From positions 22,263-86,262 of the forward strand of contig JAGFJG010000016.1 in NCBI GenBank assembly GCA_024102915.1: a stretch of DNA of 64,000 bases, given 5' to 3'. The DNA is from Caldilineales bacterium (GTDB lineage: Bacteria > Chloroflexota > Anaerolineae > J102). The position numbers and the translations under genes are program-made. Of this stretch, positions 10,830-63,274 are shown one piece after another. The notes beneath the pieces are model-generated. The model was not told where the DNA came from. It was given only the letters and a program-made list of their open reading frames with translations, and searched no databases. Every line of letters begins with the position of its first letter. Positions within the stretch are counted from its first letter, which is position 1.

Positions 10830-10864
10830 CGATAGCCTTGCGGTGGAGTGATGGGACGGCTCGT

Positions 10865-26937: not shown

Positions 26938-27162
26938 GATGTCCCGCCTTGAAAGAACGATGTCAGATCGATATGCGATTCGTAATCCAGTTTCCCAAGA
27001 TTATACGCGGTTGGGGTTGGCAGCGTCAAAGTGTTTTCCTGGGGCGGGCATAGGACTATGACCTTTGGGAGGCGGATGGCAGGACTTGCCGATCACGCGC
27101 TTTTACCTTTGCCTCCCGAAGGTCAAGCATGCGCAACCAACCACCCAACTTACCAACCCCCA

Positions 27163-38129: not shown

Positions 38130-38534
38130 TCAGCTTGGGTCGGCGTCAGTAGCTCTCCGCCGAGGATTGAGTTGCGCCATGCGGCTTGAGAAAATCGAGG
38201 CAAGAATGGCCATCAACAAAGTCAGGATGTTTGAAATGGGCGGGGCGGGAGTGGTCACGATGTAAAGCAAGCCCACGCCCAGGGCAATCAGCACGCCATT
38301 GAGCAAGTGGCCGGAGGGCAGGCTGCGGGTGGCTACGAACGCGCCCCAGGCGCAGGCCAGAGCGACCATAATGTTGCTGACGAATGAATAGCGAGGAAGC
38401 GCCTGCACGTCCTGGATGGTTTGGGCGGGACTGATGGCGATAAGCACAGCGACGAGCAAACCCATGCCCAGCACGGCCAGGATGACCCCAACCAGTATGC
38501 CCATGAGCACGCGCGACCAGCGGATGCCTTTCAT
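38130..38534 (-). CDS. Hypothetical four-helix membrane protein
   Basis: 134-aa hydrophobic ORF that overlaps the upstream TPR gene stop by 4 nt. I recognise no family. Confidence 0.5.
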   Translation of the reverse strand: MKGIRWSRVLMGILVGVILAVLGMGLLVAVLIAISPAQTIQDVQALPRYSFVSNIMVALACAWGAFVATRSLPSGHLLNGVLIALGVGLLYIVTTPAPPISNILTLLMAILASIFSSRMAQLNPRRRATDADPS

Positions 38535-46115: not shown

Positions 46116-46249
46116 TCGTAGGTGATATCCGGACAAGGTTAAGGGCGGTGGTAAGACCGCCCTTTTGATGCGAACGCTTATTCTAGCACGGCGCTCGCGT
46201 CGGCGGCAAAGCCGATCTCAATACGCTGCGACCGATGTCGGGGTTCCCC

Positions 46250-48054: not shown

Positions 48055-48176
48055 ACGGAAGGATTACCTCGGAGGGATAGTCAGACATCGGGCGACAATA
48101 GCGCCCTGATAATGCTGATAATAACTCAAATTCAATGCAAGCCGCCAATCCAAATCTGGAGCGTTCGGAACGGAAC

Positions 48177-49541
48177 CTAGTTGTTGGGCGCACCGGCGGC
48201 AATCCACAATCGAACACGTTCCAGTTGTTCAGGCGTAAGACGGGTGGGATGCGCTTCGACGGGCATAGACTGTACAAGCAACAGGCGGCTGTGATCAGGA
48301 TCGCCGGGAATAATGACAGGCCCGGAAGCTCCGCCCTGCATCAGGCTGCGATAGCTGATCAGGTTGAGTGAACTGCTGGTACCGTGGCAGGCGACGCACT
48401 TGGCATTGATGATGGGACGGATCGAGGATGCAAAACTGGGAATGTCCAACGCCTCGACAGTGGGGAGTTCGCCATTGTTCGTTTCGAGCAATACATGACA
48501 ACTCAGGCAGGTCTCATTCCCCAAAGCCAACTCGTCATGGAAAGGCGTAAAGGGTTGGATGGCGCCCAGGCCGTGACAGGAAAGACAGTCCTCGCGTCCT
48601 TCGCTGATGGCATGGGGAATTGGCGGCGCTGCTGACCGCCGAGCCGTCATTGCCTGCTCTGGATCAGGCGTGGGCGTGGGCGTCGGCGTCGCTCGCACGA
48701 ATGCCTCGCCTTGCTCCGGCAGAGGCGGCACGGTGGCAATGGCAGTCTGCTCGTAAGTGATGAAAAAGTAAAGGACGACGACGAAAATCAGGGTCGAGAC
48801 AAAAGCGAAGGGCAGATAAATGCGTTCACGGCGGCGGATCACCTCTCGCGGCGGCTCCGGTCGGACATCCCCGGCCTCGATTCGTTCCAGCTCGCGGCCA
48901 TGTTCGTGCTCCATTTGCTCGCGCGTGAGCTTGCCGGTGAAGATGCTGCGATTGAAGGTCTTGAGATGGACGTTGTACATATGCCAGACCACAATCGCCA
49001 GAAAAGCCAGGAGGGCTTCGCCGCCATGGGCGGCCTTCGCCGCCGGAATCCAACTGCCTGGGAAAAACCGGGTGATTGAGATCGGGTTCCAGAGCATGAA
49101 CCCAGTCAACACCATCACCCCTGTGCCCCAGACCACCGCCCAGTACTCCAGCTTTTCCTCAAAGCTATAGCGATCGTACTTGGGGCGATTACGGGCCAAC
49201 CCCAGATTGTAACGGATGGCATCGATGAAATCGATCACGTCCTGGAACGAAGGCAGCATAGCGGGCGAGACGCGGCGGACATAGAGCTTGTATCCCACAG
49301 CTAGAATGTGATAGGCGCTTTCGATGATCATGATGATGGCGGCGAGGCGATGGATGATCCGCACAGTCTCGACCCCGCCCATCCAATTGATCATCGTCAT
49401 CGCCCAGGGCGCGGGCGCGTATTTCTGGGGGATGCCGGTGATGACCAGAACCGTAAACGAAACCAACAGCAGCAGGTGTTCCACCCGATCCATGCGGGCG
49501 AAACGCACATAATACTCCTTCACTTTAGAATTGGCGCTCAT
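48177..49541 (-). CDS. FdnI/HydC-like b-type cytochrome membrane subunit fused to a C-terminal trihaem c domain
   Basis: N-terminal RFARMDRVEHLLLLVSFTVLVITG plus 4-5 helices with conserved His (IIH, AHGGE..WHMY), as in formate-dehydrogenase-gamma / Ni-Fe hydrogenase cytochrome b. The tail has CLSCH, CLSCH and CVACHG...GGASGPVIIPGDPDHSRLL, which resembles the Planctomycete-type cytochrome c domain. Confidence 0.75.
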   Translation of the reverse strand: MSANSKVKEYYVRFARMDRVEHLLLLVSFTVLVITGIPQKYAPAPWAMTMINWMGGVETVRIIHRLAAIIMIIESAYHILAVGYKLYVRRVSPAMLPSFQDVIDFIDAIRYNLGLARNRPKYDRYSFEEKLEYWAVVWGTGVMVLTGFMLWNPISITRFFPGSWIPAAKAAHGGEALLAFLAIVVWHMYNVHLKTFNRSIFTGKLTREQMEHEHGRELERIEAGDVRPEPPREVIRRRERIYLPFAFVSTLIFVVVLYFFITYEQTAIATVPPLPEQGEAFVRATPTPTPTPDPEQAMTARRSAAPPIPHAISEGREDCLSCHGLGAIQPFTPFHDELALGNETCLSCHVLLETNNGELPTVEALDIPSFASSIRPIINAKCVACHGTSSSLNLISYRSLMQGGASGPVIIPGDPDHSRLLLVQSMPVEAHPTRLTPEQLERVRLWIAAGAPNN

Positions 49542-50668
49542 GCTCCCTCCCCTCCGTGTCCCTGGTCATGTCCCCGACCAAAGATGCGGCCCACGATGCG
49601 CCGGATGGCATCGAGTGAGACGAATGCGATCATGAAACCGATCGTGCCGGGAATGATCAGCAGATAGAACAGGTTGATGTAGTAGACCAGGGGGTTGTGT
49701 TCTTTGTCCGGGATATAGTGGCTGGTCCAGGAGGTGGGGAAGTTGGCGTCGGCATCGGGATGGCAGCGCTGGCATGTCACCAGCAGATTCTCTTTGACGA
49801 CCAAGGCATTCGGATCATCGATCGCCTTGATATTGTGGATGCCATGACAGTCATAACAGACTGCCTTGTTGGTTAGCTGATCGGGTGACTGCCGCTCGAA
49901 TAGCGTGACCGTCGTGCCGTGGAAATCAGCCACATAGGTATTGAACACATCGGTCGAAATCCCATACTTCGACATCAATGCTTCATCGGCATGGCATTCG
50001 CCGCACAACTCCGGCGATTTGATGCGGAATTCGGCTGTGCGCGGGTCTTCCATGCTGTGCACCCCATGACAATCCACGCAAGTGGGCACATCCGGATTGC
50101 TCTCATCGAACAAAGCGGCGCCATGAACGCTTTCTTTATAATTATCGAAGATCGTGGCGTGGCACTGGCTGCAAGTGGCCGAAACCTGCTGGCGAGGTTC
50201 GTGGGGATTGCTTATATCATGGCTGCCATGACAATCGGTGCAAATGGCCGCATCGCGGTTGCCGCCCGCCAGCAACTTGGCATGCATCGAGTCCAGGGTG
50301 GCGTCGTATTGCTCGGAATGGCAGTTACGACAGGCCTCATAACGGTCGATCTGGAAGTCGCGGCGGCTGTTCGCATTGAGCGGCGGATGCGGATAACCGG
50401 AGATATTTGTATGGCAGGCGGTGCAGGTCAGGTGCTCTTGCCCGTGAACCGAATCACTGAAAACTTCGGCATCGACATAGAGCGACATCACCTCGCCATT
50501 CGCCAGTTCGATCTCGCGGTCGGGAATGCCATGACAGGCAAGACATGTATTGTTGGGATCGCCGCTCTGGGCTGGCGGGGCGGCTTGCGTTGTTGGAATT
50601 CCGGCAAGAAAAAGGAGCGCCAGGGCCAGGGTGAGGGCCGCGATGGGCAGGCGGGAAAGGAAGGGCAT
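49538..50668 (-). CDS. Nonahaem c-type cytochrome with signal peptide and C-terminal membrane anchor
   Basis: Nine CxxCH motifs (CLACH, CTACH, CRNCH, CTDCH, CSQCH, CVDCH, CGECH, CYDCH, CQRCH). Signal peptide ...AGIPTTQA. C-terminal helix LFYLLIIPGTIGFMIAFVSL. The stop overlaps the cytochrome b start by 4 nt. Confidence 0.85.
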   Translation of the reverse strand: MPFLSRLPIAALTLALALLFLAGIPTTQAAPPAQSGDPNNTCLACHGIPDREIELANGEVMSLYVDAEVFSDSVHGQEHLTCTACHTNISGYPHPPLNANSRRDFQIDRYEACRNCHSEQYDATLDSMHAKLLAGGNRDAAICTDCHGSHDISNPHEPRQQVSATCSQCHATIFDNYKESVHGAALFDESNPDVPTCVDCHGVHSMEDPRTAEFRIKSPELCGECHADEALMSKYGISTDVFNTYVADFHGTTVTLFERQSPDQLTNKAVCYDCHGIHNIKAIDDPNALVVKENLLVTCQRCHPDADANFPTSWTSHYIPDKEHNPLVYYINLFYLLIIPGTIGFMIAFVSLDAIRRIVGRIFGRGHDQGHGGEGA

Positions 50669-50693
50669 TGAAGTGAGTCAGCGGGAGGGGTAA

Positions 50694-50754
50694 AGGTATT
50701 GGTAAATTGGGTATCGGATATTAGGGGCTATCGGCCAAATACCCAATACCCAAT
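50694..50754. repeat. Heptamer-based hairpin inside the cytochrome operon (28-haem / 9-haem spacer)
   Basis: ATTGGGTAT (50706-50714) is perfectly complementary to ATACCCAAT (50739-50747). The flanks read GGTATTG GTAAATT GGGTATC GGATATT ... ACCCAAT ACCCAAT. Confidence 0.55.
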
Positions 50755-50765
50755 CAGTTTTCAAC

Positions 50766-53700
50766 TTACTGTGGCCGGTAATACTTGATGCCGGCGCTGG
50801 GGTGGCAGGTGTTGCAGCGGTTGGTGTAACCCGTCTTCGTAACCTGACCGAAGGCGCCGGTGGCGTCCTGACCATGGGTGATGCCTATGTCGGCATAGGT
50901 CATGGCCGGATAATTGACGCCGTCAGCCGTCGATTTGACGCCGTGCGGATCGTGGCAGGTGACGCAGCTTGGCTTCGATTCTTTCGTGCCGTCGCCGTCG
51001 CTATCCCAGGCCAGTTGGTTCATGTCGAGATGATCCCAATGGATGTTGGCAGGCACATTACCGAAGTAAAAGCCCTGCGCCGACTCGTTTCGGAAACTCG
51101 TGATGACGGGATCGACCTGAAGAGGATATCCGGCAGGCGGCGGATTGGAATGCGTAAACAACGCGTTGCTGTATCCTGGCCCCATCCCCACCTGGTTGGG
51201 TTCCAGATGGCAGGTGTAGCACAGTGCGTAATTCGACTTCTGATAGGATTCAGAATCGGTGATTGGCACGTTCAGCCCGCCGAAATTAAGCCAGAGAGCC
51301 TGCTGGTAATTATCAGCAGCGGCCTTATAAGTTTGGGCTACGCCATCGAAATGGATGCTGTTCTGCCCCTTCTGATGGCAGGTTATGCAGGCGAAACCCT
51401 TACTGCCGTGGCCGGTGACGGCGAAGCCGTAAGTCGAACCATCGCCTACCACGTTGGGAGCGGGAACGCCCTTGACCATGGCCGGAGCGTTATCGTGGCA
51501 GCCTTCGCAGCTTAAAGCGCCGCCGCTCGACCACTTGCTCTTCGCCTCGGCCACGCCATTCACAGCGCCGCCAGCGCTATGGCAATCATTACAGACGGCA
51601 GTGCTCGACAACGTCTTGCCGTCGGCAAAATTGACCTTGCCGTTGACGTGATCTTCGCTGGGGTAGTTGCTGTGGCAGGTATTGCAAGACTGAATACCGG
51701 GGCCCTGGTTGGAGCTGTCGAAGTGGCGGGCGTGCGCGCCGCTGGTCAAATCCTGCGCATTGACGCCGTGACAGGTTCCGCATGTGCCGCTGGCCGCATT
51801 GCCCCAGAGCGGGGTGCTGAACTTCGGCGTGCCGGGTTGTTCCCGGCTGGCCGCGCCGTCGGAATGGCACAGGCTGTTGGCGCAGGTCAGATCATTCGAT
51901 CGGAAGGCCGAATTATCGATGCGCCCGAAAACGTCCTTGACATTCATCGCCACCTGTTTCTGGAAGTCAACATGATTGTCGATATTCGCCACGGCATCGT
52001 TATTGTTGTTCTGCGCCGTCACGCTATGGCATTCGAAACACCCGATGGAATCATCGCCCCGGTCTTTGTAGTTGGGCGTCAGGTGTTTTCCATGGCTGCC
52101 TGTGGTGAGATTGGTCTGATCATTATGGCATCCGGCACAGGTCAATGTTGCGCCTTCCGCCCAAACCGGATTCTTGTACACCAGTTGACCAGTGCTGGGT
52201 GCGCCGTTGCTGTGGCAACCCACCGTAGCACAGGTGCGCGACGTGCGATCATAGCTGCCGCCGGGATTCAGCGAATCGAAGAATACATCCTGGAACGAAG
52301 GCGGCGAGGTGATGTGACCGCTGTAACCGGGGGCGGCATCATTGTGGCAGGCGCTGCATTCCAGCCCATATTGGCCGGGATCATCACCCGCATGGATGAG
52401 ATGAGGAGTCAGATTTTCGTTGAGGGGATAATCATTGCGGCTGGCCGGCGGCGGCGGCGTGCCATGACAGGCGTCGCATCCGCCCACAGGCATAAACGCA
52501 TCCGCCGTTCCCGGAACGCCATCCGTTTCGTGCCTGTGGCAAGAGGTGCAGTCGGCGCCCTCGAAGTGGGGGTTCTCATTCCAATTGCTGGGATTGCGGT
52601 TGTGCGCAGTCGTGGTATGGCAGGTGGCGCAGAGATCGTTGGCGTTGTTGTCGCCCGGCGGATCAAAGCTGAACTCACCGGTCCGGGCCAGGAAAGCCAC
52701 CGGATTGTTGCGAATCTGAGGGCGAATGGCGCTCAGATTGCTGCTGCCATGCGCGTTGTGGCAATTGACGCATGTCTCCACAAAGGGGTCTTGTGTGGCG
52801 GCGTCGAAAGCCTGATTGCCGTGGGCGCTGACATCCATGCCCGCGCGGCTGGAGTCGGCATGACAGCGAGCGCACAATTCGTTTGGCGGAGCCAGCAGTC
52901 GAGGGTTGGACGCATCCGTAAAGTGGGGGGCGTCAGGATTGTGGCAGCTCTGGCAATCAACGCCAGACGCTGCGCCATGTCCATTGACCGCCCAGAACTG
53001 ATCGACCGCCGGTGCGGTCTTGCCGTGCAACACGCCGGGTTTGATGCTGTTATGGCAACCTGTGCAATCCTCGATCTCGCGGTTCGCTCGCCACGCCGAC
53101 TTGGCTTCCAATACGCCCTGCGGCGTGCCGTGGCAGTCATTGCAAACGGCAGTCTGATTCAAGTCCTTGTTGTCCGCCATGTTGACCCAGCCGTTGTAAT
53201 GGCCCTTGTCGGTCCAGTTCTTGACTTTGGGATGACAGGCGGTGCAATTATCCAGGCCAATGTCGGCCTGTTCGTGGCGGCTGTGGGCGCTATTCCCCGG
53301 CGGCGTACCATGACAAGCGCGGCAACTCTGCGGGTTGACGTAGAATCCATCCGTATGCGGATGACACCTGGTGCAATCCTGATCTTCGTAATGGGTCTTA
53401 TTGGCCGATGTGCTGTGATAATTGGTCGTCGTATGACAGGTCTCACAGATAGCCCATGATCCGCCGTCAAAGCGACGGCCATCAAATCGCACCTCTTTGC
53501 CAAAGATCGCCTTCTGGATAAGGGCGGCGTTGTCGGTTTTGGCGTGCGGTTCATGGCACGTTGCGCACTCATTCTGCTTATGCGTCAGAGCCGTGGGATG
53601 GCAGGAGTAGCAGGCGGTTTCCGGGTCGGTCACCAACACATGCGGCTGATGACAGGTCATGCAACTGCTGGTCGATGCACTGTAATTGCCATGCGGATTG

Positions 53701-53837
53701 AACGGAGCCCCTTGCAGCGCGGTGACGCGCCACAAATTACTGCTGCCGGCGTTCAACAATAGCAACAGCACAACGGTGAGGATCAGCAAAGGTGCGAACC
53801 TCAGTAGCTTGCTCACGAATCTAGGCATCGACTTCAT
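50766..53837 (-). CDS. Giant multihaem c-type cytochrome (28 haem motifs, 1023 aa), N-terminal membrane/signal anchor
   Basis: I count 26 CxxCH motifs plus 2 Cx4CH motifs (CATVGCH, CANSLCH). Each Cx4CH is followed by a CxxCH, as in the Geobacter CxxxxCH...CxxCH repeat family. Hydrophobic N-terminus LLRFAPLLILTVVLLLLL. Confidence 0.85.
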   Translation of the reverse strand: MKSMPRFVSKLLRFAPLLILTVVLLLLLNAGSSNLWRVTALQGAPFNPHGNYSASTSSCMTCHQPHVLVTDPETACYSCHPTALTHKQNECATCHEPHAKTDNAALIQKAIFGKEVRFDGRRFDGGSWAICETCHTTTNYHSTSANKTHYEDQDCTRCHPHTDGFYVNPQSCRACHGTPPGNSAHSRHEQADIGLDNCTACHPKVKNWTDKGHYNGWVNMADNKDLNQTAVCNDCHGTPQGVLEAKSAWRANREIEDCTGCHNSIKPGVLHGKTAPAVDQFWAVNGHGAASGVDCQSCHNPDAPHFTDASNPRLLAPPNELCARCHADSSRAGMDVSAHGNQAFDAATQDPFVETCVNCHNAHGSSNLSAIRPQIRNNPVAFLARTGEFSFDPPGDNNANDLCATCHTTTAHNRNPSNWNENPHFEGADCTSCHRHETDGVPGTADAFMPVGGCDACHGTPPPPASRNDYPLNENLTPHLIHAGDDPGQYGLECSACHNDAAPGYSGHITSPPSFQDVFFDSLNPGGSYDRTSRTCATVGCHSNGAPSTGQLVYKNPVWAEGATLTCAGCHNDQTNLTTGSHGKHLTPNYKDRGDDSIGCFECHSVTAQNNNNDAVANIDNHVDFQKQVAMNVKDVFGRIDNSAFRSNDLTCANSLCHSDGAASREQPGTPKFSTPLWGNAASGTCGTCHGVNAQDLTSGAHARHFDSSNQGPGIQSCNTCHSNYPSEDHVNGKVNFADGKTLSSTAVCNDCHSAGGAVNGVAEAKSKWSSGGALSCEGCHDNAPAMVKGVPAPNVVGDGSTYGFAVTGHGSKGFACITCHQKGQNSIHFDGVAQTYKAAADNYQQALWLNFGGLNVPITDSESYQKSNYALCYTCHLEPNQVGMGPGYSNALFTHSNPPPAGYPLQVDPVITSFRNESAQGFYFGNVPANIHWDHLDMNQLAWDSDGDGTKESKPSCVTCHDPHGVKSTADGVNYPAMTYADIGITHGQDATGAFGQVTKTGYTNRCNTCHPSAGIKYYRPQ

Positions 53838-53843
53838 CGTGGG

Positions 53844-55604
53844 CTATCTCCGTGCGGTGGGTGGGGAGGAGGGAGCCTGGAATGAGTGGCACTCGATACA
53901 GAGGGCGTCGCCCGCTGCTCTCAGGTCAAAGTCATGCTGCGTGCCGTGCGGGCTGTGGCAGCTTACACAGGACAGTCCCTCTCCGATGACGGGATGGAAA
54001 CCGTGCGGCAAACCGCTATGGCAGGATTCGCAGAGGGCGTTGGTGCGATTTTTCAGCAGGCCATCGATGTTGCCGCTATGGGCGTTGTGGCAGGCGGCGC
54101 ATTGCTCGCGCAATTGGGTGGAATGTTTGCTGTTGGCGAATGTGGCGGCCTGGCCGCTATGGCATTCGCCGCACAACTGCCGCGCCGAAGTCTGCAACAA
54201 ATCCGGGTGACTGCTGCTGTGCGATACATGGCAGGATGTACAATCCCCGGAAGCGACCGGCTGATGTTTGATAGCGCCCTGTTGCAAGTCATGGCAGTCG
54301 GTGCAGATATTGCTTGCCACCGCCGCCAGGGTCGTTCTGCTCTTGCCGTGGAATTCGGTGTGGCACTGTGCGCAATCGCCCGCGGCCACCGGTTCGTGCG
54401 TGCTGCCGGATGAAGCCAGCACGATATCGCTATGACATTCGACGCAGGTCTCGGCCAACTGCGTTCCCGAAGTTTTCGGCTCGTGCGGCGAATGGCAGGA
54501 GGTGCAGGATGGCAGTTTGTCGGCGGAATGATTGGCGAACGTATGCTGCGTGTCGAACTGCTCGGTGTGGCAGGTCTTGCAGATCGCATCCTCCGACTGC
54601 ACCAGGAGGTTGGCGTTGTTGCTGCCATGCCCATCGTGGCAAAGCAGACATTCACCCACGGCCAGGCTGGGATGCGGTTGGCTCACCATCTGCCCGTGAT
54701 CTTGATGGCATTCGTTACAAGATGCCGCCTGGGTCTCGGCCAGCAAGGGTGCATCCGGCCCCTGGTGGAATCCGCCATGACAATCAGAGCACTTGCCTTC
54801 GGCAAATGGCTGGTGCGGATGACTGAAGCTGTCCGGCTCCGGCAGATCGGTATGGCATTGTTCGCAGGCTTCCCGGTCCAGCGTCATCTCTGAGGGTGGA
54901 TGGGGGTCGTGCGGATCATGGCATAGGCTGCACTGGATGTTTTCATCCTGGGCATGGCTGGCGAAGCTAATGGACGGATCCGTCTGATCGGTATGGCAGG
55001 TTCCGCACAATTTCTGCTGAGGCTGGCGCAGGATAGCGGCATTGTCGGAACCATGCGACACATGGCAAAGATTACACTCGCCCGCGGCCAGGTCGGGATG
55101 CGGTTGATCGATCTCGCCACCCAAATCCTTGTGACACTCATTGCAAGCGTCATTGACATTCGTGACCATGAGCGCGGGATAGGCGCTGGCGTGGGGATTA
55201 TGGCAGGAGGTGCAATCCCCGCGGGCGAATGGCTGGTGCGGGTGACTGACCGGCGATTCGGGATCGGGCAAATCCTGCCAGTGACAATCCCGGCAAACAG
55301 CATCCTGCGTCCCCCACAACTGTTTTGGATCCGACCCGCTGAGATCATGGCACGCGCCACAGGCCCCATCCCCAAACGGCGGATGCACGTAATCCAGGCT
55401 ATCCAAAGGCGCTGGACCCAAACCCGCCGCGATCGCATCAGCTGGCGGCGTGGGCGTGAAAAAGGGCGTCGGCGTGGGTGTGGGCGTCCCTTCCGGCCCG
55501 GAATCGCGACGACAGCTATTGAGGACGAGGATCGCCAGGATTAATAGCGCTGTCAGAGCTGCAATAGGAAGAAGGCGGCGCCAGCGCTGCGAGTGCAATG
55601 TCAT
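53844..55604 (-). CDS. 22-haem c-type cytochrome, probable lipoprotein with Pro/Thr linker (polymer of c7/c3-like modules)
   Basis: 22 CxxCH motifs. N-terminal LLILAILVLNSC is a lipobox-like Cys, followed by GTPTPTPTPFFTPTPP. The unit HP(H/D)xP(F/L)AxGxCxxCHxxH...CxxCH recurs about 7-8 times. Confidence 0.85.
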   Translation of the reverse strand: MTLHSQRWRRLLPIAALTALLILAILVLNSCRRDSGPEGTPTPTPTPFFTPTPPADAIAAGLGPAPLDSLDYVHPPFGDGACGACHDLSGSDPKQLWGTQDAVCRDCHWQDLPDPESPVSHPHQPFARGDCTSCHNPHASAYPALMVTNVNDACNECHKDLGGEIDQPHPDLAAGECNLCHVSHGSDNAAILRQPQQKLCGTCHTDQTDPSISFASHAQDENIQCSLCHDPHDPHPPSEMTLDREACEQCHTDLPEPDSFSHPHQPFAEGKCSDCHGGFHQGPDAPLLAETQAASCNECHQDHGQMVSQPHPSLAVGECLLCHDGHGSNNANLLVQSEDAICKTCHTEQFDTQHTFANHSADKLPSCTSCHSPHEPKTSGTQLAETCVECHSDIVLASSGSTHEPVAAGDCAQCHTEFHGKSRTTLAAVASNICTDCHDLQQGAIKHQPVASGDCTSCHVSHSSSHPDLLQTSARQLCGECHSGQAATFANSKHSTQLREQCAACHNAHSGNIDGLLKNRTNALCESCHSGLPHGFHPVIGEGLSCVSCHSPHGTQHDFDLRAAGDALCIECHSFQAPSSPPTARR

Positions 55605-55948
55605 GCTTTACAAAGAATCCAGGGAATGATTAGGGCATTATAACGCAGAATGAGAAATGTGAATATGATATTAATCAGGTTCCTAGTGCGCAAATTGTGA
55701 CACATGGATCGGACAGACCCTTCATCATGGAGGATAATCTGCCGCGCGTGCATCCGAATATGCCTTGTTGCATCAAGAAATAGTCCATCGAAGTCGAAAC
55801 AAGTGCAAAAATTACCTCCAATTATGACAAAGATCATGTCGCAACTTAGAAACGAGTGCTATTCTATTTTAACGTGTCAGTTCAGGCTGACAGTCGGGAA
55901 TAGTTTATAAGGCCAAACTTGCCACTATCTTGAACGGAGGCGACTCAC
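55605..55948. promoter_or_regulatory. AT-rich divergent control region between the two cytochrome operons
   Basis: A 344-bp non-coding, visibly AT-rich spacer between the divergent starts at 55604 (-) and 55949 (+). It contains the palindrome TGTGACACA (~55696-55704) and the hairpin TGTCAG-ttcagg-CTGACA (~55875-55892). Confidence 0.4.
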
Positions 55949-56416
55949 GTGAAAGACCCAGTTCAGATTTTCAACAACGAGCAGAAAACCGATCGTCGTG
56001 GATTCCTGAAGCTTTTGTTGGGTTTTTCCGGGCTGGTCACAGCCGTTGGCGTTCTCACGCCCGTGATCGGCTATTTGTGGCCGCCTAAGCAGGCGTCGAC
56101 AGTAGGCGCTGGCCGGGTGCCGGTAGGATCGACCGAAGAATTTCCTGTGGGGCAGGGCAAGGTTGTGCCGGTGGATGGCAAACCAGTGATAATTGTAAAC
56201 ACAGATCAAGGCGGATTAACCGCCTACTCAGCCGTCTGCACGCATTTGGGCTGCGTTGTGGAATGGGACGATAGAAGGCAATTCATTCTTTGCCCCTGCC
56301 ATGATGGACGATTCAACGCCATCAATGGCGCTGTAATCTCTGGCCCGCCACCCACGCCTCTGCCTGAATTGCCCCTCGTCGTGGAGCAGGATACCGTTTA
56401 CGTCTCACCCGCCTAA
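55949..56416 (+). CDS. Rieske [2Fe-2S] subunit with twin-arginine signal
   Basis: GTG start with GGAGG 8 nt upstream. Tat motif DRRGFLKLLLG. Cluster boxes CTHLGC and CPCHDGRF. Confidence 0.9.
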   Translation: MKDPVQIFNNEQKTDRRGFLKLLLGFSGLVTAVGVLTPVIGYLWPPKQASTVGAGRVPVGSTEEFPVGQGKVVPVDGKPVIIVNTDQGGLTAYSAVCTHLGCVVEWDDRRQFILCPCHDGRFNAINGAVISGPPPTPLPELPLVVEQDTVYVSPA

Positions 56417-56445
56417 ATCTCATCGATCAATTCGCAGGAGGCGAC

Positions 56446-57507
56446 ATGGAGGCTAAGAAATCGAGCTTTAACCGGATGTGGGATTGGGTGGATACACGTT
56501 ACCGTGCCAATGAACTGATCCAGGCGCTGCTTCACGTCGAGATCCCGCGCTCGGCCAAAACTTTCTATTTCGGCGGGATCACACTCTTCTTTTTCATCGT
56601 CCAAGCCGCAACCGGCATCCTGCTGTCTATTTACTATCAGCCATCGCCCGATTCAGCTTTTAACAGCATTCTTTTCATTATGAATAACGTGCGCTTCGGC
56701 TGGCTGATCCGCAGCATTCACGCCTGGAGCGCCAATCTCATGGTGCTGTTCTGCGTACTGCATCTGCTGCGCATTTTCTTCCAGGCAGCTTATAAGAAGC
56801 CCAGAGAGATGACGTGGGTATTTGGCGTAGTCCTGTTGGGCGTAACCCTGGTGTTCGGTTTCACAGGCTATCTCTTGCCCTGGGACCAACGGGCTTACTG
56901 GGCGACAGTGGTAGGAAGCGAGATCGCCGGGGCGTTGCCCATCGTGGGCGGGCAACTGCTCACCTTCCTGCGCGGCGGCGCTGACATCACCGCAGCAACC
57001 CTGACCCGATTTTTCGGCATCCATGTACTCATACTCCCGGTTACTCTGGCGCTGGTGCTGGTCATCCATATCACGATGGTGCACCAACAGGGCCTTGCTG
57101 ACCCCAAACGTGAAAAAGTGGATGACCAGTCGCGCAAAAAGAGGCTCCTGCCTTTCTTCCCGAATTATGTACTCGATGAAATGATCGCCTGGTATCTGAT
57201 GCTGGCCGGATTAATCGTACTGGCATCCGTTTTCCCCGGCGGATTGGAGGAACCGGCCGACCCCCTGCGTACGCCCGAACACACAAAACCGGAATGGTAT
57301 TTTCTTTTCCTCTACCAGGCCTTGAAAGTAGTGCCTCGCATCATCGGCGTCACTTTGCCCATCATCGGCGGCATTCTCTTGTTATTACTGCCATTCATCG
57401 ATCGCAGCCCCTATGTCGAACTCAGGAAACGTCCTGTGGCTCTGGCGGTGGGCGTTATCTGCGTGGCTGGCATTGTCGGATTCACGATATGGGGCTGGCT
57501 AAGCTAG
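56446..57507 (+). CDS. Cytochrome b, fused b6 plus subunit-IV type
   Basis: AGGAGG RBS. Haem ligands are spaced H-x13-H (IHAWSANLMVLFCVLH) and H-x14-H (IHVLILPVTLALVLVIH), which is the b6 pattern. The PEWY motif (KPEWYFLFLYQ) sits in the subunit-IV-like C-terminal part. Confidence 0.9.
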   Translation: MEAKKSSFNRMWDWVDTRYRANELIQALLHVEIPRSAKTFYFGGITLFFFIVQAATGILLSIYYQPSPDSAFNSILFIMNNVRFGWLIRSIHAWSANLMVLFCVLHLLRIFFQAAYKKPREMTWVFGVVLLGVTLVFGFTGYLLPWDQRAYWATVVGSEIAGALPIVGGQLLTFLRGGADITAATLTRFFGIHVLILPVTLALVLVIHITMVHQQGLADPKREKVDDQSRKKRLLPFFPNYVLDEMIAWYLMLAGLIVLASVFPGGLEEPADPLRTPEHTKPEWYFLFLYQALKVVPRIIGVTLPIIGGILLLLLPFIDRSPYVELRKRPVALAVGVICVAGIVGFTIWGWLS

Positions 57508-57523
57508 CACAGGGAGCAATGTC

Positions 57524-59476
57524 ATGAACCATCGGCTTCGCACTCGCCTGCTTATCCTATCGGTGCTGCTGATTGCCGCCGGTATCGCATCGACCCTGAC
57601 GCTGGCGCAAGGCACGCCCCCAACGATCCCGCATCCGCTCAAGAATTACCGCGGCTGCCTGGTTTGCCACGGCACGGGATTGGCCAGCGCGCCCCAGGTC
57701 CCCGACAGCCATGATGGCTTCGAAAATGAAATCTGCACTTCGTGTCACCTGACCGGCGAAGAGGCGGCCGAGCAAAGCGGCGCTGCGGCTGCGGGCCCAG
57801 GCCCAGAGCAGATTCCGCATCCCATTGAGGGGCGCGAGAACTGTGTGCAGTGCCATCAACCTGCCGAGGGCGGTGAAATCATCCCCGCCGCCGCGGGTGC
57901 GCCTGCGATACCACACACTTTGGAAGGTCACGATAAATGCCTGGCCTGCCATCAGGAAGGCGTGGGCGGCGCACCTCAAATGCCTGACGACCACGCCGGG
58001 CGCACAGAAGAGATTTGTCAGGCCTGTCATCAGCCTGGTGGCACGATGACAGTTGGTGGAAGCGGTGAAGGCGGAGCGCCCAACATCCCTCACACACTGG
58101 TGGGGCGAGATGATTGTTTGGGTTGCCACGAACAGGGGTTCGGCGGCGCACCCCAAATCCCTGACGACCATGCCGGGCGCAGCAATGACATCTGCCAGGC
58201 CTGTCACCAATCCACCGAAGCAGCGCCTGAGGCAGCGGAACCGATCGCCAGCGGCCCCATCCCCACGCCCATTCCCCACCCGCCGGTACAGGACACGGAT
58301 TCCTGCGTAGCCTGCCACGAGGCATTGGAAGGAGCGCAGGGGCAGGTGACCGCCGATTGGGCGATGAGCATCCATGCCGAGCGTGATGTCTCTTGCGCGG
58401 ATTGCCACGGCGGCGACCCCACTGCCTCTACCGTCAATGAATCAATGGACCCGGCAGCGGGTTATATCGGCGCTCCTGATAAAGCTGACATTCCAGCACT
58501 GTGCGCCAGTTGTCACGCCGACGTGAATTTAATGCGCCAATATGATCTGCCCACCGACCAGTGGGCCAAGTATCAGGAAAGCATCCACGGCATCCAGCTT
58601 GCCCGCGGCGATGAGAAGGTCACGACCTGTTACGATTGCCACGGCGGGCATAAAATCCTCAAGGCCAATGACCCGGCTTCCACGGTTTATGCCAGTAATG
58701 TGCCAGCATTGTGCGCCGGATGCCATTCTGATCAGGAATTGATGCGGCCTTATGGCATCCCCACCGACCAGTATGACCTCTACCGTGAAAGTGTGCACGG
58801 CATCGCTCTGCTCGATCATCAGGATTTCCGGGCGCCCAATTGCGCCACCTGTCATGGCACCCACGGGGCTGCGCCTCCGGGTTTCAATGAGGTGAGCAAT
58901 GTCTGCGGAAGCTGCCATTCCGCCACGCAAGAACATTATCTGCAAAGCGCCCACGCCAATGTCGAGGGCGGCCCTGAATGCGTGACCTGCCATGGCCGCT
59001 ATGATGTGGGCGTGCCCGACGACTCGATGTATCTGGGTTCAGAGCCGCGACACTGTGGTTCGTGTCATCCCGAAGACAGCCCGGAAGGCCAGATCGTTCA
59101 ATCAATCTATGACAATATCACGCAAGCGGACGCAGCTTACGAGGAAGCAGAAAACCGGGTGGAAGGGGTGAAACGCCTGGGCATGCTTGTATTGGACGAG
59201 GAGGGCCGCTTGCAGGAATCGAATACAAAACTGATCACGGCGCGGGCTTTGCAGCATACCACCGACCTGGCAACGGTGAAGGAAAAGACCGACGAAGCGG
59301 CAAGCCTGGCGAATGAGGCCAAACAAGGCGCTGACTCCGCCGCCGCTGAAAACCTGTTCCGGCGGCAAGCGATGGTGGTCGCCGTCATCGCCATCGCCTT
59401 CGCCATCGGCGCTCTCTATCTATTGAAGCGAGAGCTAGATCGGCGGTTGGAACGCGAGGATGCCCAGGAGCAGTAA
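57524..59476 (+). CDS. 16-haem c-type cytochrome with signal peptide, coiled-coil and C-terminal membrane anchor (c subunit of the Rieske/cyt b complex by position)
   Basis: 16 CxxCH motifs. The N-terminal half holds about five IPHx(5-7)CxxCH modules, three of them in near-identical dihaem units (...IPHTL(E/V)G(H/R)D(K/D)CL(A/G)CH(Q/E)(E/Q)G(V/F)GGAPQ(M/I)PDDHAGR...ICQACHQ). C-terminal helix AMVVAVIAIAFAIGALYLL. Confidence 0.85.
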   Translation: MNHRLRTRLLILSVLLIAAGIASTLTLAQGTPPTIPHPLKNYRGCLVCHGTGLASAPQVPDSHDGFENEICTSCHLTGEEAAEQSGAAAAGPGPEQIPHPIEGRENCVQCHQPAEGGEIIPAAAGAPAIPHTLEGHDKCLACHQEGVGGAPQMPDDHAGRTEEICQACHQPGGTMTVGGSGEGGAPNIPHTLVGRDDCLGCHEQGFGGAPQIPDDHAGRSNDICQACHQSTEAAPEAAEPIASGPIPTPIPHPPVQDTDSCVACHEALEGAQGQVTADWAMSIHAERDVSCADCHGGDPTASTVNESMDPAAGYIGAPDKADIPALCASCHADVNLMRQYDLPTDQWAKYQESIHGIQLARGDEKVTTCYDCHGGHKILKANDPASTVYASNVPALCAGCHSDQELMRPYGIPTDQYDLYRESVHGIALLDHQDFRAPNCATCHGTHGAAPPGFNEVSNVCGSCHSATQEHYLQSAHANVEGGPECVTCHGRYDVGVPDDSMYLGSEPRHCGSCHPEDSPEGQIVQSIYDNITQADAAYEEAENRVEGVKRLGMLVLDEEGRLQESNTKLITARALQHTTDLATVKEKTDEAASLANEAKQGADSAAAENLFRRQAMVVAVIAIAFAIGALYLLKRELDRRLEREDAQEQ

Positions 59477-59530
59477 GATTGGATCATCGAAAGATTGCAC
59501 TCCCACATCGCTTCATAGGACAGGAGAAAA

Positions 59531-60343
59531 GTGAGAGTCAAAAATAAAATCATCGTGGTTACGGGCGGCGGGAATGGCATGGGGCGCGAGCTTGTCTTGA
59601 ACTTGCTTGTCAGAGGCGCCAGCGTAGCAGCCGTCGACATCAGTGAAGCTGCACTGCAGGAAACAATCGAACTGGCAGGCGACAAAAGGGGCAGCCTTTC
59701 AACCTATGTGGTAGACATCACCAACAGAGATGCGGTGGCGTCGCTCCCCGAACAGGTCATTGCCAGGCATGGAGCCGTAGATGGCCTCATCAACAATGCC
59801 GGGATCATCCAACCCTTCGTTCGTGTCAACGATCTGGATTATGCCGCCATCGAGCAGGTGATGAATGTCAATTTCTATGGAACTCTTTACATGACCAAAA
59901 CATTCTTACCCCACCTTCTAAAGAGACCCGAAGCGCATATTTCAAACACATCCAGCATGGGCGGATACCTGCCTGTCCCCGGACAGACGATCTACGGAGC
60001 CACGAAAGCGGCCATCAAGTTATTCACCGAGGGATTGCACTCCGAACTCCTGAATACCAACGTCAAAGTCACCGTCGTATTTCCCGGCGCTATTGGCACC
60101 AATATTGCCGCCAATTCGGGCGTCGGGGACTCGCTAAATGTTTCCAGTGAAGACAGCCAGAGGTCGTTTCGGCCATTGGCCGCCAGTAAAGCGGCGCAAA
60201 TCATCCTCGATGGCATCGAGAAAGATCGGTACAGCATTTTCGTGGGGCGGGACGCACGATTCATGGACTTATTGGTCAGGATCAGCCCAAAACGAGCCGC
60301 GAATTATATTTTCAAGCAGATGCAATCGCTCTTGCCAGCCTAA
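59531..60343 (+). CDS. Short-chain dehydrogenase/reductase (SDR)
   Basis: GTG start with AGGAGA upstream. TGGGNGMG cofactor motif, NNAG, and the catalytic Y-x3-K (YGATKAA). Confidence 0.85.
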   Translation: MRVKNKIIVVTGGGNGMGRELVLNLLVRGASVAAVDISEAALQETIELAGDKRGSLSTYVVDITNRDAVASLPEQVIARHGAVDGLINNAGIIQPFVRVNDLDYAAIEQVMNVNFYGTLYMTKTFLPHLLKRPEAHISNTSSMGGYLPVPGQTIYGATKAAIKLFTEGLHSELLNTNVKVTVVFPGAIGTNIAANSGVGDSLNVSSEDSQRSFRPLAASKAAQIILDGIEKDRYSIFVGRDARFMDLLVRISPKRAANYIFKQMQSLLPA

Positions 60344-60420
60344 CATGATGGTGATTTTAGAGGTTCGTCTTTCCTGATTATAGCGATTGAATATCAGGTT
60401 TTCCTGGTCGCAACAAAATC

Positions 60421-60460
60421 GCATAAACAACAATCGGGCGCTCCAGGTGGAGCGCCCGAT
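60421..60460 (-). terminator. Strong hairpin terminator after the decahaem gene (between convergent genes)
   Basis: Perfect 12-bp stem ATCGGGCGCTCC (60433-60444) / GGAGCGCCCGAT (60449-60460) with loop AGGT. On the minus strand, TTGTTGTTTATGCGATTTTG follows. Confidence 0.65.
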
Positions 60461-60492
60461 CGTACGGTGTAGACAGGGGTGATGGATGTGTT

Positions 60493-62694
60493 TTACTGGG
60501 GTCGGGTCTTGCCAGTGGTCAATCCATCGGCGTAGTCGGACATCTCCAGATCTTCGAGATTGTCGAAGAGAGCCTGACCGACGTACTTGTTGTTGTGAGC
60601 GAAAGCGCCTGGATCCTTCAGGAAGTACTGGTAATTGTAGGCTGCGCGCAGCAGGCGAGGCGTCCAGGTGCTATAGCGAGCGCCCGAACCATTGAACCAG
60701 TAAGGATAGCGGCTGCCATCGTAGACGATGTCGTCGGAAACCGGGTTGGCGGTGGCGTAGGTCTGCATGCCCGCGTAGAGTGCTGCTGCAAGTCCTTCCA
60801 ATTCGCCATTGACGCCTTCAGCGGTGTTGCCATCGCCATCGTAGTCAGGTGTGGTGGCCCAACGGATGTTCTTGAGATCATCGGGGCTGCCGAGCGGGCC
60901 GTGGCAGGCGGTGCAAGCCTGGTACTCGACCTCAAGTTCGTGCACATTGTGGCAGTCTTCGCAGGTTGCAAACATACTGCCGCCGAACGGATGCTTGTTC
61001 TGGCCGACGTAGGTCTTGCCTTCGAACTCGTAGATGCCGTTGGTGACATTGCCGAAGAGCGTAGCGCCCGCAGCGAAGTAGTGGACGTTGATGAAGCCCT
61101 GACCAGTGTCAAGATCATCATCACCGACACCGGCTGTGGCATCGTCGATCTGGCCGCCATAGGCGCGACCCTGGTGGCACTGGATACACAGGTTATTGTC
61201 CTTGTCGCCGCCCTTCTCCAGACTGACATCAGCGCCGTTCGGGAAGGTCACTTCATCGAACACCCAGCGGTCCGGCCAGGATTCGCCGTTATGACAGGTG
61301 GTGCACATCATGCCGTTGGCGGCTTCCTGGGTGATGCTGACGCCTTCTTTGACCAGGAAGGGAATGCCGTCGGCGCTATGGCATTTGCTGCAGCTTCCGG
61401 GCACTTCGTAGTCATCCCCGTCCCAATGCCGCCATGCTTCCTCGGAACCGGCGAAGTGGCCGGGGTCGATGCGATGGGCATTGCTCATGTCCACCTTATT
61501 GGTGATGGCCTCATTCAGATCGCCGATCGAATCATGCAGCAATTGGATGACGTACTTGCCATTGTGGGCGAACTTGCCGGGGTCCTTCTGACCAACCTGA
61601 TAGTTAAATGTCGCTTTCATCAGGCGAGCAGTATAGGCATTGTAGTTTACGGCGGGATCATCCTTTACGTTATCGCAGTTTGCATCGACGAACCAATAGG
61701 GATGGCTACTCGAATCGTAAACGATGCATTTCTGAGACACTTCCTCTGCATAATCCTGAATTGCTCCGTAAAGAAGCGCCTGTAAACCTGCGATCTCTTC
61801 GCCCACGCCTTCCTCGTCATTACCATCGCCGTCATAATCGGCCAGCGAGCCCATCATGCGCACCATATCGAAATCATCTGCTGATTCGACATCGGCGTGG
61901 CATTCCTGGCACTCCGTGAGCTTCAGTTCCAGCGTGTGCATGTCATGGCACTCGTAACACTGATCGTATTGTTCGACATGGCGGAAGTTGATATCGTAGC
62001 TCATGCCTTCATATTCATAGCCGCCATGCACCAGTGCGCCGTATTGCGTCGCCGCCGCAGCGAAGTAATGTATATTCTGGAAGGAAGCGGTTGGCTCGAC
62101 TGCGTCCACATCAGCAGTCATGCCCTTCCCTTCCAGATAGGTGTCAACCTGCGGTCCAGACGAACGTCCTTGATGGCATTCCATACAGCGGGATTCATCG
62201 CCCAGGTTCTCGATAGTAACGCCAGAGGGGAATTTGACGCTTGTCTTGTGCAGGGTGACGTCGTTGTGGCAGGCCACACATTCGACTGTAGACCCCACAG
62301 GAGGCGCTACTTCAACAGAGCCAGCGGCGCTGCCATCCGCGCCCAAGAAGTCCAGGTAGCCTGGCGTGCTGTGGCACTTGGCGCAGCTCGTTTGAACGAC
62401 GCCGGCATCATCCCAGTGCCGGAAAGCTTCAGCGTCATGGTCATTGTGCGGAGAATTCGCCCAACGATCCAGGAACGGCACTTCTACGGCCACACCCGTG
62501 CACGGTGATAACTGGTAGGGCATGAATAGTTTGACCGGCAGTTCTCCGCCTTGCAACGCCGGCCCTATCAGCGATGCTTGCGGACAAACTGGGTTGAGGT
62601 CAGGCGCAGCCGCTTGCGCAGAACCGCCGCTCACCACGAGCAGCAGGGCCAATGCAAGCGCCAAAGCGCCCAAAATCGTGTATCTTCCTTTCAT
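60493..62694 (-). CDS. Secreted decahaem c-type cytochrome built from two tandem pentahaem halves
   Basis: Start ATG 62694 (MKGRYTILGALALALALLLVVSGGSAQA) with AGGAGG upstream. There are 10 CxxCH motifs, 5 + 5. Both halves share WRHWD, SC(A/S)KCHS, CxxCHQGR, N(I/V)HYFAA, DYDGDGN, PYWF and KDPGxFAHNxKYV. Confidence 0.85.
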   Translation of the reverse strand: MKGRYTILGALALALALLLVVSGGSAQAAAPDLNPVCPQASLIGPALQGGELPVKLFMPYQLSPCTGVAVEVPFLDRWANSPHNDHDAEAFRHWDDAGVVQTSCAKCHSTPGYLDFLGADGSAAGSVEVAPPVGSTVECVACHNDVTLHKTSVKFPSGVTIENLGDESRCMECHQGRSSGPQVDTYLEGKGMTADVDAVEPTASFQNIHYFAAAATQYGALVHGGYEYEGMSYDINFRHVEQYDQCYECHDMHTLELKLTECQECHADVESADDFDMVRMMGSLADYDGDGNDEEGVGEEIAGLQALLYGAIQDYAEEVSQKCIVYDSSSHPYWFVDANCDNVKDDPAVNYNAYTARLMKATFNYQVGQKDPGKFAHNGKYVIQLLHDSIGDLNEAITNKVDMSNAHRIDPGHFAGSEEAWRHWDGDDYEVPGSCSKCHSADGIPFLVKEGVSITQEAANGMMCTTCHNGESWPDRWVFDEVTFPNGADVSLEKGGDKDNNLCIQCHQGRAYGGQIDDATAGVGDDDLDTGQGFINVHYFAAGATLFGNVTNGIYEFEGKTYVGQNKHPFGGSMFATCEDCHNVHELEVEYQACTACHGPLGSPDDLKNIRWATTPDYDGDGNTAEGVNGELEGLAAALYAGMQTYATANPVSDDIVYDGSRYPYWFNGSGARYSTWTPRLLRAAYNYQYFLKDPGAFAHNNKYVGQALFDNLEDLEMSDYADGLTTGKTRPQ

Positions 62695-63274
62695 TGCTAT
62701 TCCTCCTCTAAGTGAAAAAAGCAATGCAGCGATGGGGTGGATGCGGGGTGATTACCAATTGTGCAGCAGATGCAGCAAATACATCTTAGTGCACATCTCG
62801 TACTCCCCTTGTACAAATGTATACTAACATGATAGCAAGATTAATGGAAATCCGATATGATCTATGTCAGGTTAATCAAAAATAAATTTGGGTTCGTGGG
62901 ATGAGAGGACGACGATCGGGGGGCCGCAGGTCGGGAAACAGGGTGATGCCGAGTCGGGCAGGGTAGCGATGAACATTTAGCGAAAAATCACGCAATAGTC
63001 CGACAAAAAAGTGAATTCGTTCACCAAAACTGATCTAAGTCATATTCAAACCGCATTTGCAGCGCGAAAATAGAAGCGCTTGAAGTGTCGCAATCTCGCA
63101 TGGACGCTTTCTTCGCACGACCTTCTGGCATACCAACACCGGCCGGGCTGCGCCACAACGCTGGGGCTAACATCGCATCAGCCTAGCTGGATCATCATGG
63201 AGATGGATTGACGATCACCGGCTTCGGTCAGAGATTGGCAATCTGTCATTGCCGTGTTCAAAGGAGCAAACGTT

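Follow-up and report, generated by a model that had tools for sequence, protein, structure and literature searches.

A paired-CXXCH polymer of 22 haems as a candidate membrane-tethered electron wire in a multihaem gene cluster of Caldilineales (Chloroflexota)

From our analysis of 64,000 nucleotides of a Caldilineales bacterium (contig JAGFJG010000016.1 of assembly GCA_024102915.1; hereafter the window), the gene at 53844–55604 on the minus strand was found to encode a cytochrome with 22 haem motifs. Sequence profiles and a predicted fold identify its repeat as the dihaem unit of MtrA/DmsE, not the trihaem c7 domain of the Geobacter protein GSU1996, and the chain appears to be held at the membrane through a lipobox-like Cys and a Pro/Thr-rich stalk. 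We consider it rather probable that the protein serves as a membrane-tethered wire in a conduit for extracellular electron transfer that has no porin.

53844–55604, minus strand: 22-haem cytochrome gene; open reading frame (ORF) with 22 CxxCH motifs, matching PF09699 and TIGR01905, MtrA being the only solved relative

The gene is a genuine ORF that starts with ATG and gives a product of 586 aa. Its 22 CxxCH motifs lie 20–27 residues apart, at 23.4 residues per haem, where a composition of 45 Cys and 52 His would yield ~0.3 such motifs by chance; the variant motifs CxxxCH, CxxxxCH and CxxCK do not occur in the sequence. The count of 22 made in the initial annotation of this DNA thus holds, as does its reading of the N-terminus as MTLHSQRWRRLLPIAALTALLILAILVLNSC followed by RRDSGPEGTPTPTPTPFFTPTPP, which is identical in the ORF translation. 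The haem motifs take up 44 of the 45 Cys, which leaves Cys31 as the sole non-haem Cys. Because 30 His (29 in the mature chain) lie outside the motifs for 22 haems, and the mature chain has just three Met (M146, M240 and M306) without periodicity, bis-His ligation of all 22 haems is plausible. Relatives were gathered by a protein search together with a scan of one genome per GTDB species. No exact copy of the protein was found in the public gene-position collection, the closest relatives being 52–60% identical.

The haem region divides into 11 dihaem units of 44–49 aa each, with the pattern H-x7-9-CxxCH-x2-H-x14-17-CxxCH, when cuts are placed by hand ten residues ahead of each odd-numbered CxxCH. 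The Pfam family Paired_CXXCH_1 (PF09699), a domain of ~41 aa with two CxxCH, matches in 10 separate stretches (E = 1.3e-90) and at 297.3 bits lies far over its curated cutoff of 20.6, and TIGR01905 matches in 9 stretches (258.8 bits, cutoff 25.2). In an ungapped autocorrelation with the haem Cys and His masked, a peak was seen at an offset of 142 aa (mean BLOSUM 0.095), above all of 200 shuffles (−0.32 ± 0.065, maximum −0.127). A period of 23 or 47 aa is absent from this masked autocorrelation because the spacer lengths vary, and the evidence for the dihaem period is the Pfam stretches and the manual unit table. The 142-aa offset corresponds to three longer blocks:

54822–55244, minus strand: hexahaem super-repeat 1 (residues 121–261, units 2–4), sharing 46% identity with super-repeat 2 and 32% with super-repeat 3
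54405–54821, minus strand: hexahaem super-repeat 2 (residues 262–400, units 5–7), from autocorrelation and alignment
54000–54404, minus strand: hexahaem super-repeat 3 (residues 401–535, units 8–10), four haems of which are deleted in an 18-haem sister clade

The remaining alignment among these blocks gave 38% identity. In order, the chain has a cap dihaem unit, then the three hexahaem blocks, each built of three dihaem units, and lastly a terminal unit; this layout suggests that the protein may have originated partly by triplication of a six-haem block. At the DNA level, merely short degenerate matches at CxxCH codons were found within the gene, which is indicative that the duplications are old and that there was no recent amplification. 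In an alignment of 65 family members, the His at about −8 and +3 of the first CxxCH of each unit is invariant or almost so, and the consensus reads HxPVxxGxCxxCHxPHxS(x4)LL(x6)LCxxCH. A periodic module had been proposed from the start and is recovered by these analyses; its number of copies, put at 7–8, has to be raised to 10–11 dihaem units.

The nature of the module is the point on which our results depart from the initial annotation, which had seen a c7/c3-type polymer of the GSU1996 kind. The DmsE/MtrA decahaem model TIGR03508 scored 222.6 bits (cutoff 192.2), a sum over five partial stretches of a repetitive protein with the best stretch covering only profile positions 96–226 of 258, and the 22 CxxCH in 586 aa do not correspond to the ten haems in ~300–350 aa of that family. 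TIGR04257 (nanowire_3heme), the trihaem domain of c7 polymers, was unmatched at E ≤ 0.01, and the Geobacter cytochrome c7 model NF043011 (CytC7_Geobact) reached 21 bits against a cutoff of 120. In sequence searches of the PDB, the top chain was 6r2q_A, MtrA, with E = 2.6e-13 for the single sequence and 2.6e-17 for the orthologue profile. The 16-haem HMC came next (3.7e-7), and c7 chains reached E = 0.005–0.09 with the profile (best c7 0.0047–0.0081; 0.092 for 1rwj_A, which we take to be a GSU1996 domain).

The predicted fold points the same way. A prediction with AlphaFold2 (AF2) on an alignment of seven orthologues gave a mean predicted local distance difference test score (pLDDT) of 39 and was discarded without a fold search, and the 65-sequence alignment gave a haem-free model with a mean pLDDT of 77.1 and 415 of 586 residues at 70 or above. 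With this model, Foldseek returned 6r2q_A as the sole PDB match at E ≤ 0.001 (probability 1.00, E = 2.9e-4, target TM-score 0.51, 28% identity over the aligned columns), and no c7 or GSU1996 chain stood in the list. The entry 6R2Q, labelled ‘Structure of the Mtr complex’ in Foldseek, is the MtrCAB structure of Shewanella baltica (PMC7198977).

MtrA/DmsE units and c7 domains belong to one broad multihaem superfamily, and Pfam Cytochrome_C7 (2e-25, 7 stretches), Cytochrom_c3_2 and Cytochrom_CIII give weaker matches over the same CxxCH-rich residues. Each GSU1996 domain holds one His-Met ligated haem. A polymer of c7/c3-type trihaem domains, which could claim these weaker matches and a six-haem super-repeat (six being a multiple of three), is nonetheless very improbable, given a base period of two haems in 11 units, a total of 22 that is indivisible by three, the failure of both trihaem models, the far better E-values and the lone fold match of MtrA, and three non-periodic Met that would not provide a regular His-Met haem.

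Size is not what sets the protein apart, as had been supposed when it was called longer than the c7 polymers. In a set of 1.84 billion representative proteins, the module family has 4,510 matches at E ≤ 0.001, of which 253 reach E ≤ 1e-30; lengths extend to 3,592 aa, and 16-, 21-, 26-, 29- and 42-haem forms occur among the first 120 matches. From metagenomes, cytochromes have been described that carry over 100 haem motifs (PMC11495043), and long single-chain wires have been predicted in Desulfuromonadia (PMC11492766). Long paired-CXXCH polymers are common, so the count of 22 haems is unremarkable by itself.

The N-terminus reads MTLHSQRWRR-LLPIAALTALLILAILVL-NSC and continues into RRDSGPEGTPTPTPTPFFTPTPP, which gives two features ahead of the haem region:

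55512–55604, minus strand: signal-like segment (residues 1–31) with an RWRR n-region, an 18-residue hydrophobic segment and L-N-S-C ending at Cys31
55392–55511, minus strand: Pro/Thr-rich stalk RRDSGPEGTPTPTPTPFFTPTPPADAIAAGLGPAPLDSLD (residues 32–71), 10 Pro and 6 Thr in 40 residues, low pLDDT

With R7, R9, R10, the 18 hydrophobic residues and Cys31, the segment agrees with the n- and h-region rule for lipoproteins, which places the Cys within residues 15–35, and the AF2 model has a helix over residues 11–31. The Cys that closes the hydrophobic segment, with a basic residue next, is found without exception in the nine 22-haem orthologues whose N-terminus can be read (the boxes of L003 and L008 were read by eye). 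Six of these carry a canonical lipobox by the PROSITE PS51257 core (LSAC, LGSC, LAGC, SVGC and LSSC twice), and the other boxes, LNSC in the window protein and in L001 and LSTC in L005, fail by one residue. The stalks of the orthologues are 37–42 aa long and Pro/Thr-rich, with a conserved core PTPTPFxxPTPPP...GLGPAP. An 18-haem sister clade (P0008, P0009 and L010, the last with its member at L010:9941-11512) is 36–40% identical and retains the hydrophobic segment and a longer Pro/Thr-rich stalk; the deletion of its four haems inside super-repeat 3 is seen as an alignment gap in P0008 and P0009. In the wider family, lipoboxes were found in 12 of 120 matches, 26- and 42-haem forms among them, and a long Pro/Thr stalk accompanies the lipobox only in the Chloroflexota orthologue P0001. 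A Tat signal was considered from ‘RWRR’ and rejected, as the RR is not conserved in the orthologues; moreover, c-type cytochromes mature after Sec export.

We read the membrane tether with its stalk as the conserved feature, and for the 22-haem clade we take a lipidated Cys to be the most probable tether. The lipid-anchored Cys and Pro/Thr stalk of the initial annotation therefore stand as far as the tether and stalk are concerned (the Cys in 9/9 orthologues, the stalk conserved); the box of the window protein is not a canonical lipobox, as LNSC fails the published patterns.

The 22-haem gene is surrounded by further cytochrome genes, and the cluster in the window amounts to 98 c-haem motifs:

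50766–53837, minus strand: 28-haem cytochrome, the proposed distal partner; 1023 aa, 26 CxxCH and 2 CxxxxCH, N-terminal signal or anchor without Cys
53847–53851, minus strand: GGAGA, Shine-Dalgarno-like, within the last codons of the 22-haem gene and 9 nt ahead of the 28-haem ATG; a putative role only
49538–50668, minus strand: 9-haem cytochrome, transmembrane helix at the C-terminus; c-type part of a CbcL-like module divided over two genes; position conserved
48177–49541, minus strand: FdnI/HydC-like b-type cytochrome with 3 c-haem motifs, its start overlapping the 9-haem gene by 4 nt
46471–48054, minus strand: NapC/NirT/NrfH-like cytochrome with 10 haem motifs and an N-terminal transmembrane helix, candidate quinol dehydrogenase/quinone reductase
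55605–55948: divergent intergenic region of 344 nt between the 22-haem operon and the Rieske/cytochrome b operon
55949–59476, plus strand: divergent operon of a Rieske protein, a cytochrome b6-like protein and a 16-haem cytochrome, an arrangement shared by L004, L006 and L008
60493–62724, minus strand: 10-haem secreted cytochrome of 743 aa, often found near the cassette and, in L001, L003 and L007, immediately upstream of the 22-haem gene

The stop codon of the 22-haem gene (53844–53846) and the next ATG (53837) leave a gap of 6 nt before the 28-haem gene. The 344-nt divergent region upstream makes the 22-haem gene the first of its transcription unit; a single sigma-70-like match, by consensus only, lies there on the minus strand (55893–55866). 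The initial annotation had reported this 6-nt gap and had placed the gene first in an operon made together with the 28-haem gene; the gap is as described, and the divergent region, the GGAGA and the adjacency of the two genes in every orthologous locus support a joint synthesis of the two proteins.

The 28-haem protein contains GSu_C4xC__C2xCH domains (Geobacter-type CxxxxCH/CxxCH), and a PDB search at E ≤ 0.01 gave no sequence relative. Most of its orthologues are longer, with ~1264 aa and 32+2 motifs (L001, L007 and others). The b-type protein matches Pfam Ni_hydr_CYTB and PSCyt1 and the formate-dehydrogenase gamma-like family of NCBIfam, and its three c-haem motifs sit in a C-terminal, PSCyt1-like extension. 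In the divergent operon, the 16-haem c-type subunit is 650 aa long with a C-terminal transmembrane helix, and the cytochrome b scores 233.6 bits, near but under the cutoff of 290, with the ‘ExtP’ b-type model of selenite/tellurite operons. It is not certain that the 10-haem cytochrome of 743 aa belongs to the cassette. Its haem spacings (35, 31, 76, 16, then 29, 39, 75, 16) fall into two halves, suggesting an internal duplication of a pentahaem unit; no PDB relative was found for it at E ≤ 0.01, and the L001 contig carries the gene in two tandem copies.

No MtrB/PioB-type barrel was found among the genes from 46471 to 62724, all of which are assigned (cytochromes, Rieske, cytochrome b and a short-chain dehydrogenase/reductase), although not every ORF was searched with the MtrB_PioB model itself; nor does the cassette hold an extra barrel-sized or unassigned large gene in any of the 11 related loci. 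These 11 genome loci are all from Chloroflexota metagenome-assembled genomes (MAGs), labelled Caldilineales, Anaerolineae, ‘Chloroflexia’ or unclassified, with no isolate among them. By tblastn, the order 22-haem, 28–34-haem, 9-haem, b-type, NapC-like was recovered in L001–L004, L006, L008 and L009; L005 and L007 end too early to show the gene order beyond. The CbcL-like pair is missing from L010 and L011, and the NapC-like gene is conserved in all loci that are long enough, including those without the pair. At L001:7257-9569 there is a real extra ORF of 29 haems (P0004, 727 aa) between the 22-haem and 34-haem genes, so that a gene-calling error was ruled out. At its N-terminus this ORF is similar to the 28/34-haem protein, and over the C-terminal ~440 residues to the 22-haem protein (54% identical to that of the window), which points to a recombinant paralogue of the two giant cytochromes.

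Chloroflexota are considered to have no lipid outer membrane, no β-barrel assembly machinery (BAM) and no lipopolysaccharide (LPS) (PMC5808234, PMC13319060), and with all 11 loci in this phylum the earlier proposal of a host without a classical outer membrane is supported. For Litorilinea aerophila (Caldilineae), a cryo-ET study describes an envelope made up of the cytoplasmic membrane, peptidoglycan, one inner layer and one shared outer layer that bears a protein coat (PMC13319060); usable thickness values were not found in it.

Outside the cluster, the window consists of ordinary chromosomal DNA. A scan of ~30 other window ORFs for lgt/lspA, cytochrome-maturation and barrel genes yielded only a tetratricopeptide repeat (TPR) protein at 38531–39373 (minus strand) that matches the CcmH/CycH TPR model PF23914 (2.9e-16). 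At 42861–46136, 334 nt downstream of the cytochrome operon and on the same minus strand, lies the gene of a class A penicillin-binding protein (1091 aa; transglycosylase, transpeptidase and a Big_7 Ig-like domain), which by tblastn is not conserved beside the cassette in the other loci. Two large signalling-type genes at 24229–30408 (minus strand) are unrelated: one for a 902-aa FGE-sulfatase protein with a weak NACHT match, the other for a Ser/Thr kinase of 1081 aa that contains PD40 beta-propeller repeats. Two neighbouring MoeA-family genes at 16209–19702 (plus strand), the second fused to a PBP-like domain, and an MttB-family methyltransferase at 10838–12388 belong to ordinary metabolic context.

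We propose the following mechanism. After Sec export and haem attachment, Cys31 would most likely be lipidated, and the protein would be anchored on the outer side of the cytoplasmic membrane through its Pro/Thr stalk of ~40 residues. Eleven dihaem ‘paired CXXCH’ units joined head to tail, as in the decahaem wires MtrA/DmsE, would form a single continuous haem chain. In MtrA, ten bis-His haems with edge-to-edge gaps of 3.9–6.5 Å form an 80 Å chain that is insulated by the MtrB barrel (PMC7198977). Extrapolating the MtrA pitch to 21 haem-to-haem steps gives ~187 Å, that is ~19 nm, and, again by extrapolation, a fully extended 40-residue stalk could contribute up to ~12 nm more. Exchange with the quinone pool would run through the NapC/NirT-like decahaem protein, the split module of the CbcL-like 9-haem protein and its b-type partner, and the Rieske/cytochrome b/16-haem complex. 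From these quinol-side modules the wire may take electrons and conduct them across the wall layers, first to the secreted 28-haem cytochrome that is co-translated with it and then to an extracellular acceptor; a reverse flow from an extracellular donor is also conceivable. Such a wire would have no porin sheath, unlike that of MtrAB.

Several points weigh against this proposal. The LNSC of the window protein is non-canonical, with an Asn at −2 that fails both the PS51257 core and the G+LPPv2 patterns; the 18-haem clade is without a usable lipobox, the Cys being missing (P0008) or preceded by R at −1 (P0009, L010), so that a plain signal anchor evidently works too; and lgt and lspA were not seen among the ORFs scanned in the window. 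The Foldseek match spans only 225 of 586 residues (38%) with a query TM-score of 0.26, and, the AF2 model being haem-free, the linearity and the ~19 nm are extrapolations. All relatives come from MAGs. Sequence fixes neither the direction of the electrons nor the acceptor, and in the multilayered envelope of Caldilineae a ‘surface exposed’ position is putative.

Three alternatives have to be considered beside the tethered outward wire. The same wire may not be a lipoprotein, being instead kept by an uncleaved signal anchor or released as a soluble protein by a type-I signal peptide, with Cys31 incidental or at the membrane interface; we regard this as possible though doubtful. It would account for the failing boxes of the window protein and L005 and for the sister clade, and the 18-residue hydrophobic segment is long enough for a transmembrane helix. 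Further, a relaxed lipobox pattern run over all window ORFs matched the 22-haem gene only; with no second N-terminus of this type, there is no independent evidence for lipobox usage by the host. It fits poorly with a Cys whose position is fixed in 9/9 orthologues despite varying flanks, with six textbook lipoboxes, and with the lipoboxes of the 12 wider relatives. Moreover, as the only Cys of 45 outside the haem motifs, Cys31 if unmodified would presumably be a liability near the haem-attachment machinery.

An identical architecture could also serve for electron uptake, with Fe(II), a cathode or a partner cell as the donor, in the manner of MtoA/PioA, and with the Rieske/cytochrome b complex in onward or reverse transport. 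MtrA homologues operate both ways (PMC7198977, PMC9671151), CbcL/MtoC-type modules occur in reducers and oxidisers alike (PMC6295460), L004, L006 and L008 retain the divergent Rieske/cytochrome b/16-haem operon beside the cassette, and A. maritima, a cultured member of Chloroflexota, is capable of anodic as well as cathodic electron transfer (PMC5808234). On the other side, Cyc2, oxidase and carbon-fixation genes are not linked to the cluster within the window. Electron uptake differs from the outward wire in direction alone, which cannot be set from the genes, and is structurally compatible with it; we see it as a lesser possibility.

Unlikely, in our view, is a role in storing or distributing electrons within the envelope (a ‘capacitor’), or in donating them to a reductase of soluble substrates, in place of an extracellular conduit. 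The high haem density would suit a store, a capacitor-like function has been proposed for metagenomic multihaem cytochromes of very large size (PMC11495043), the DmsE-type relatives, to go by the family name, serve soluble substrates, and nothing in the window identifies the acceptor. Yet the conserved cassette holds no catalytic reductase gene (molybdoenzyme, nitrite reductase or the like), its partners being only multihaem cytochromes and quinol modules, and the secreted 28–34-haem partner always adjoins the 22-haem gene.

Comparison with known systems places the proposed tethered wire closest to MtrA, DmsE, MtoA and PioA (TIGR03508; 6R2Q chain A), with which it shares the dihaem Paired_CXXCH module and the pattern of distal His, and where a bis-His haem wire carries electrons over an envelope barrier (PMC7198977). 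MtrA differs in having 10 haems in ~330 aa against 22 in 586 aa (~28% identity over 225 columns), a plain signal peptide in place of a lipobox-like Cys and Pro/Thr stalk, an MtrB/PioB barrel where the present cluster has none and the host phylum lacks BAM/LPS, and MtrC in place of a 28–34-haem partner. Monoderm iron reducers are already known to have MtrA/DmsE-like cytochromes; precedents are the ImdcA/PdcA/CwcA/OcwA pathway of Thermincola and the MtrA/DmsE-like multihaem cytochromes of Carboxydothermus, which in C. ferrireducens have up to 22 haem motifs (PMC7911101, PMC7829351). Compared by description, these likewise form a porin-free multihaem chain from a quinol-side membrane cytochrome through the wall to a surface cytochrome. 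They belong to Firmicutes and not to Chloroflexota, the lipid/Pro/Thr tether and conserved 28–34-haem partner being specific to the present clade; in Thermincola, a soluble decahaem and a polymerising hexahaem protein are proposed where one 22-haem polypeptide could span the distance here.

The Geobacter c7 polymers (GSU1996, GSU0592 and GSU2210) are also single-chain ‘nanowires’ in which small haem domains recur and each haem takes up little polypeptide, but their domain is the trihaem c7 of TIGR04257 and not a dihaem unit, and they are soluble periplasmic proteins of a diderm, whereas the present protein would be tethered in a member of Chloroflexota. The long paired-CXXCH polymers of metagenomes (16-, 21-, 26- and 42-haem, up to ~3,600 aa) have the same repeat unit and consensus, and ~10% of them have lipoboxes; they are just 25–40% identical, and their named sources are mostly Desulfobacterota, Acidobacteriota and similar. 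Geobacter CbcL joins nine CX2CH to a HydC/FdnI-like b domain (PMC6295460), a 9-haem and b-type pair that is split over two genes here. The window cluster thus appears to hold a split CbcL-type module in a phylum for which the 2018 survey of quinol oxidases listed no CbcL-type homologue (PMC6295460).

What is particular here is the combination of an MtrA-type module, a lipobox with a conserved Pro/Thr stalk, no porin, and a fixed 28–34-haem partner in a small uncultured Chloroflexota clade, which comprises one cluster at 50% identity and the 18-haem clade. We found no description of the cluster in the literature, of which our coverage is incomplete; searches of Caldilineales with ‘multiheme cytochrome’ returned nil, and those of Anaerolineae nothing relevant. 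Ardenticatena maritima, the one electroactive Chloroflexota isolate that has been studied, has at most a 7-haem cytochrome (PMC5808234).

The passage of electrons across tens of nanometres of wall without a porin is poorly understood, with experiments only in a few Firmicutes, and Chloroflexota are abundant in sediments, the subsurface and sludge. The conserved, phylum-specific cassette, with its tethered 22-haem wire, secreted 28–34-haem partner and three different quinol-side modules, is a testable candidate for mineral or electrode respiration, or for the uptake of Fe(II) or electrons, in Chloroflexota. If the proposal is true, the MtrA module would work unsheathed and be extended by simple block duplication, which is of relevance to the engineering of protein wires. 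Conceivably, although we would not hold it likely, the 22-haem protein and its translationally coupled 28–34-haem partner make up a covalently tethered, porin-free conduit of ~50 haems that is specific to filamentous Chloroflexota, crosses their multilayered non-lipid envelope (peptidoglycan, inner layer and shared outer layer) and perhaps feeds the shared outer layer. Such a conduit, if real, would be a third architecture for taking electrons across the envelope, in addition to porin-cytochrome complexes and filaments of polymerised cytochromes, and by feeding the shared outer layer it could allow electrons to be shared between cells in a manner loosely comparable to cable bacteria.

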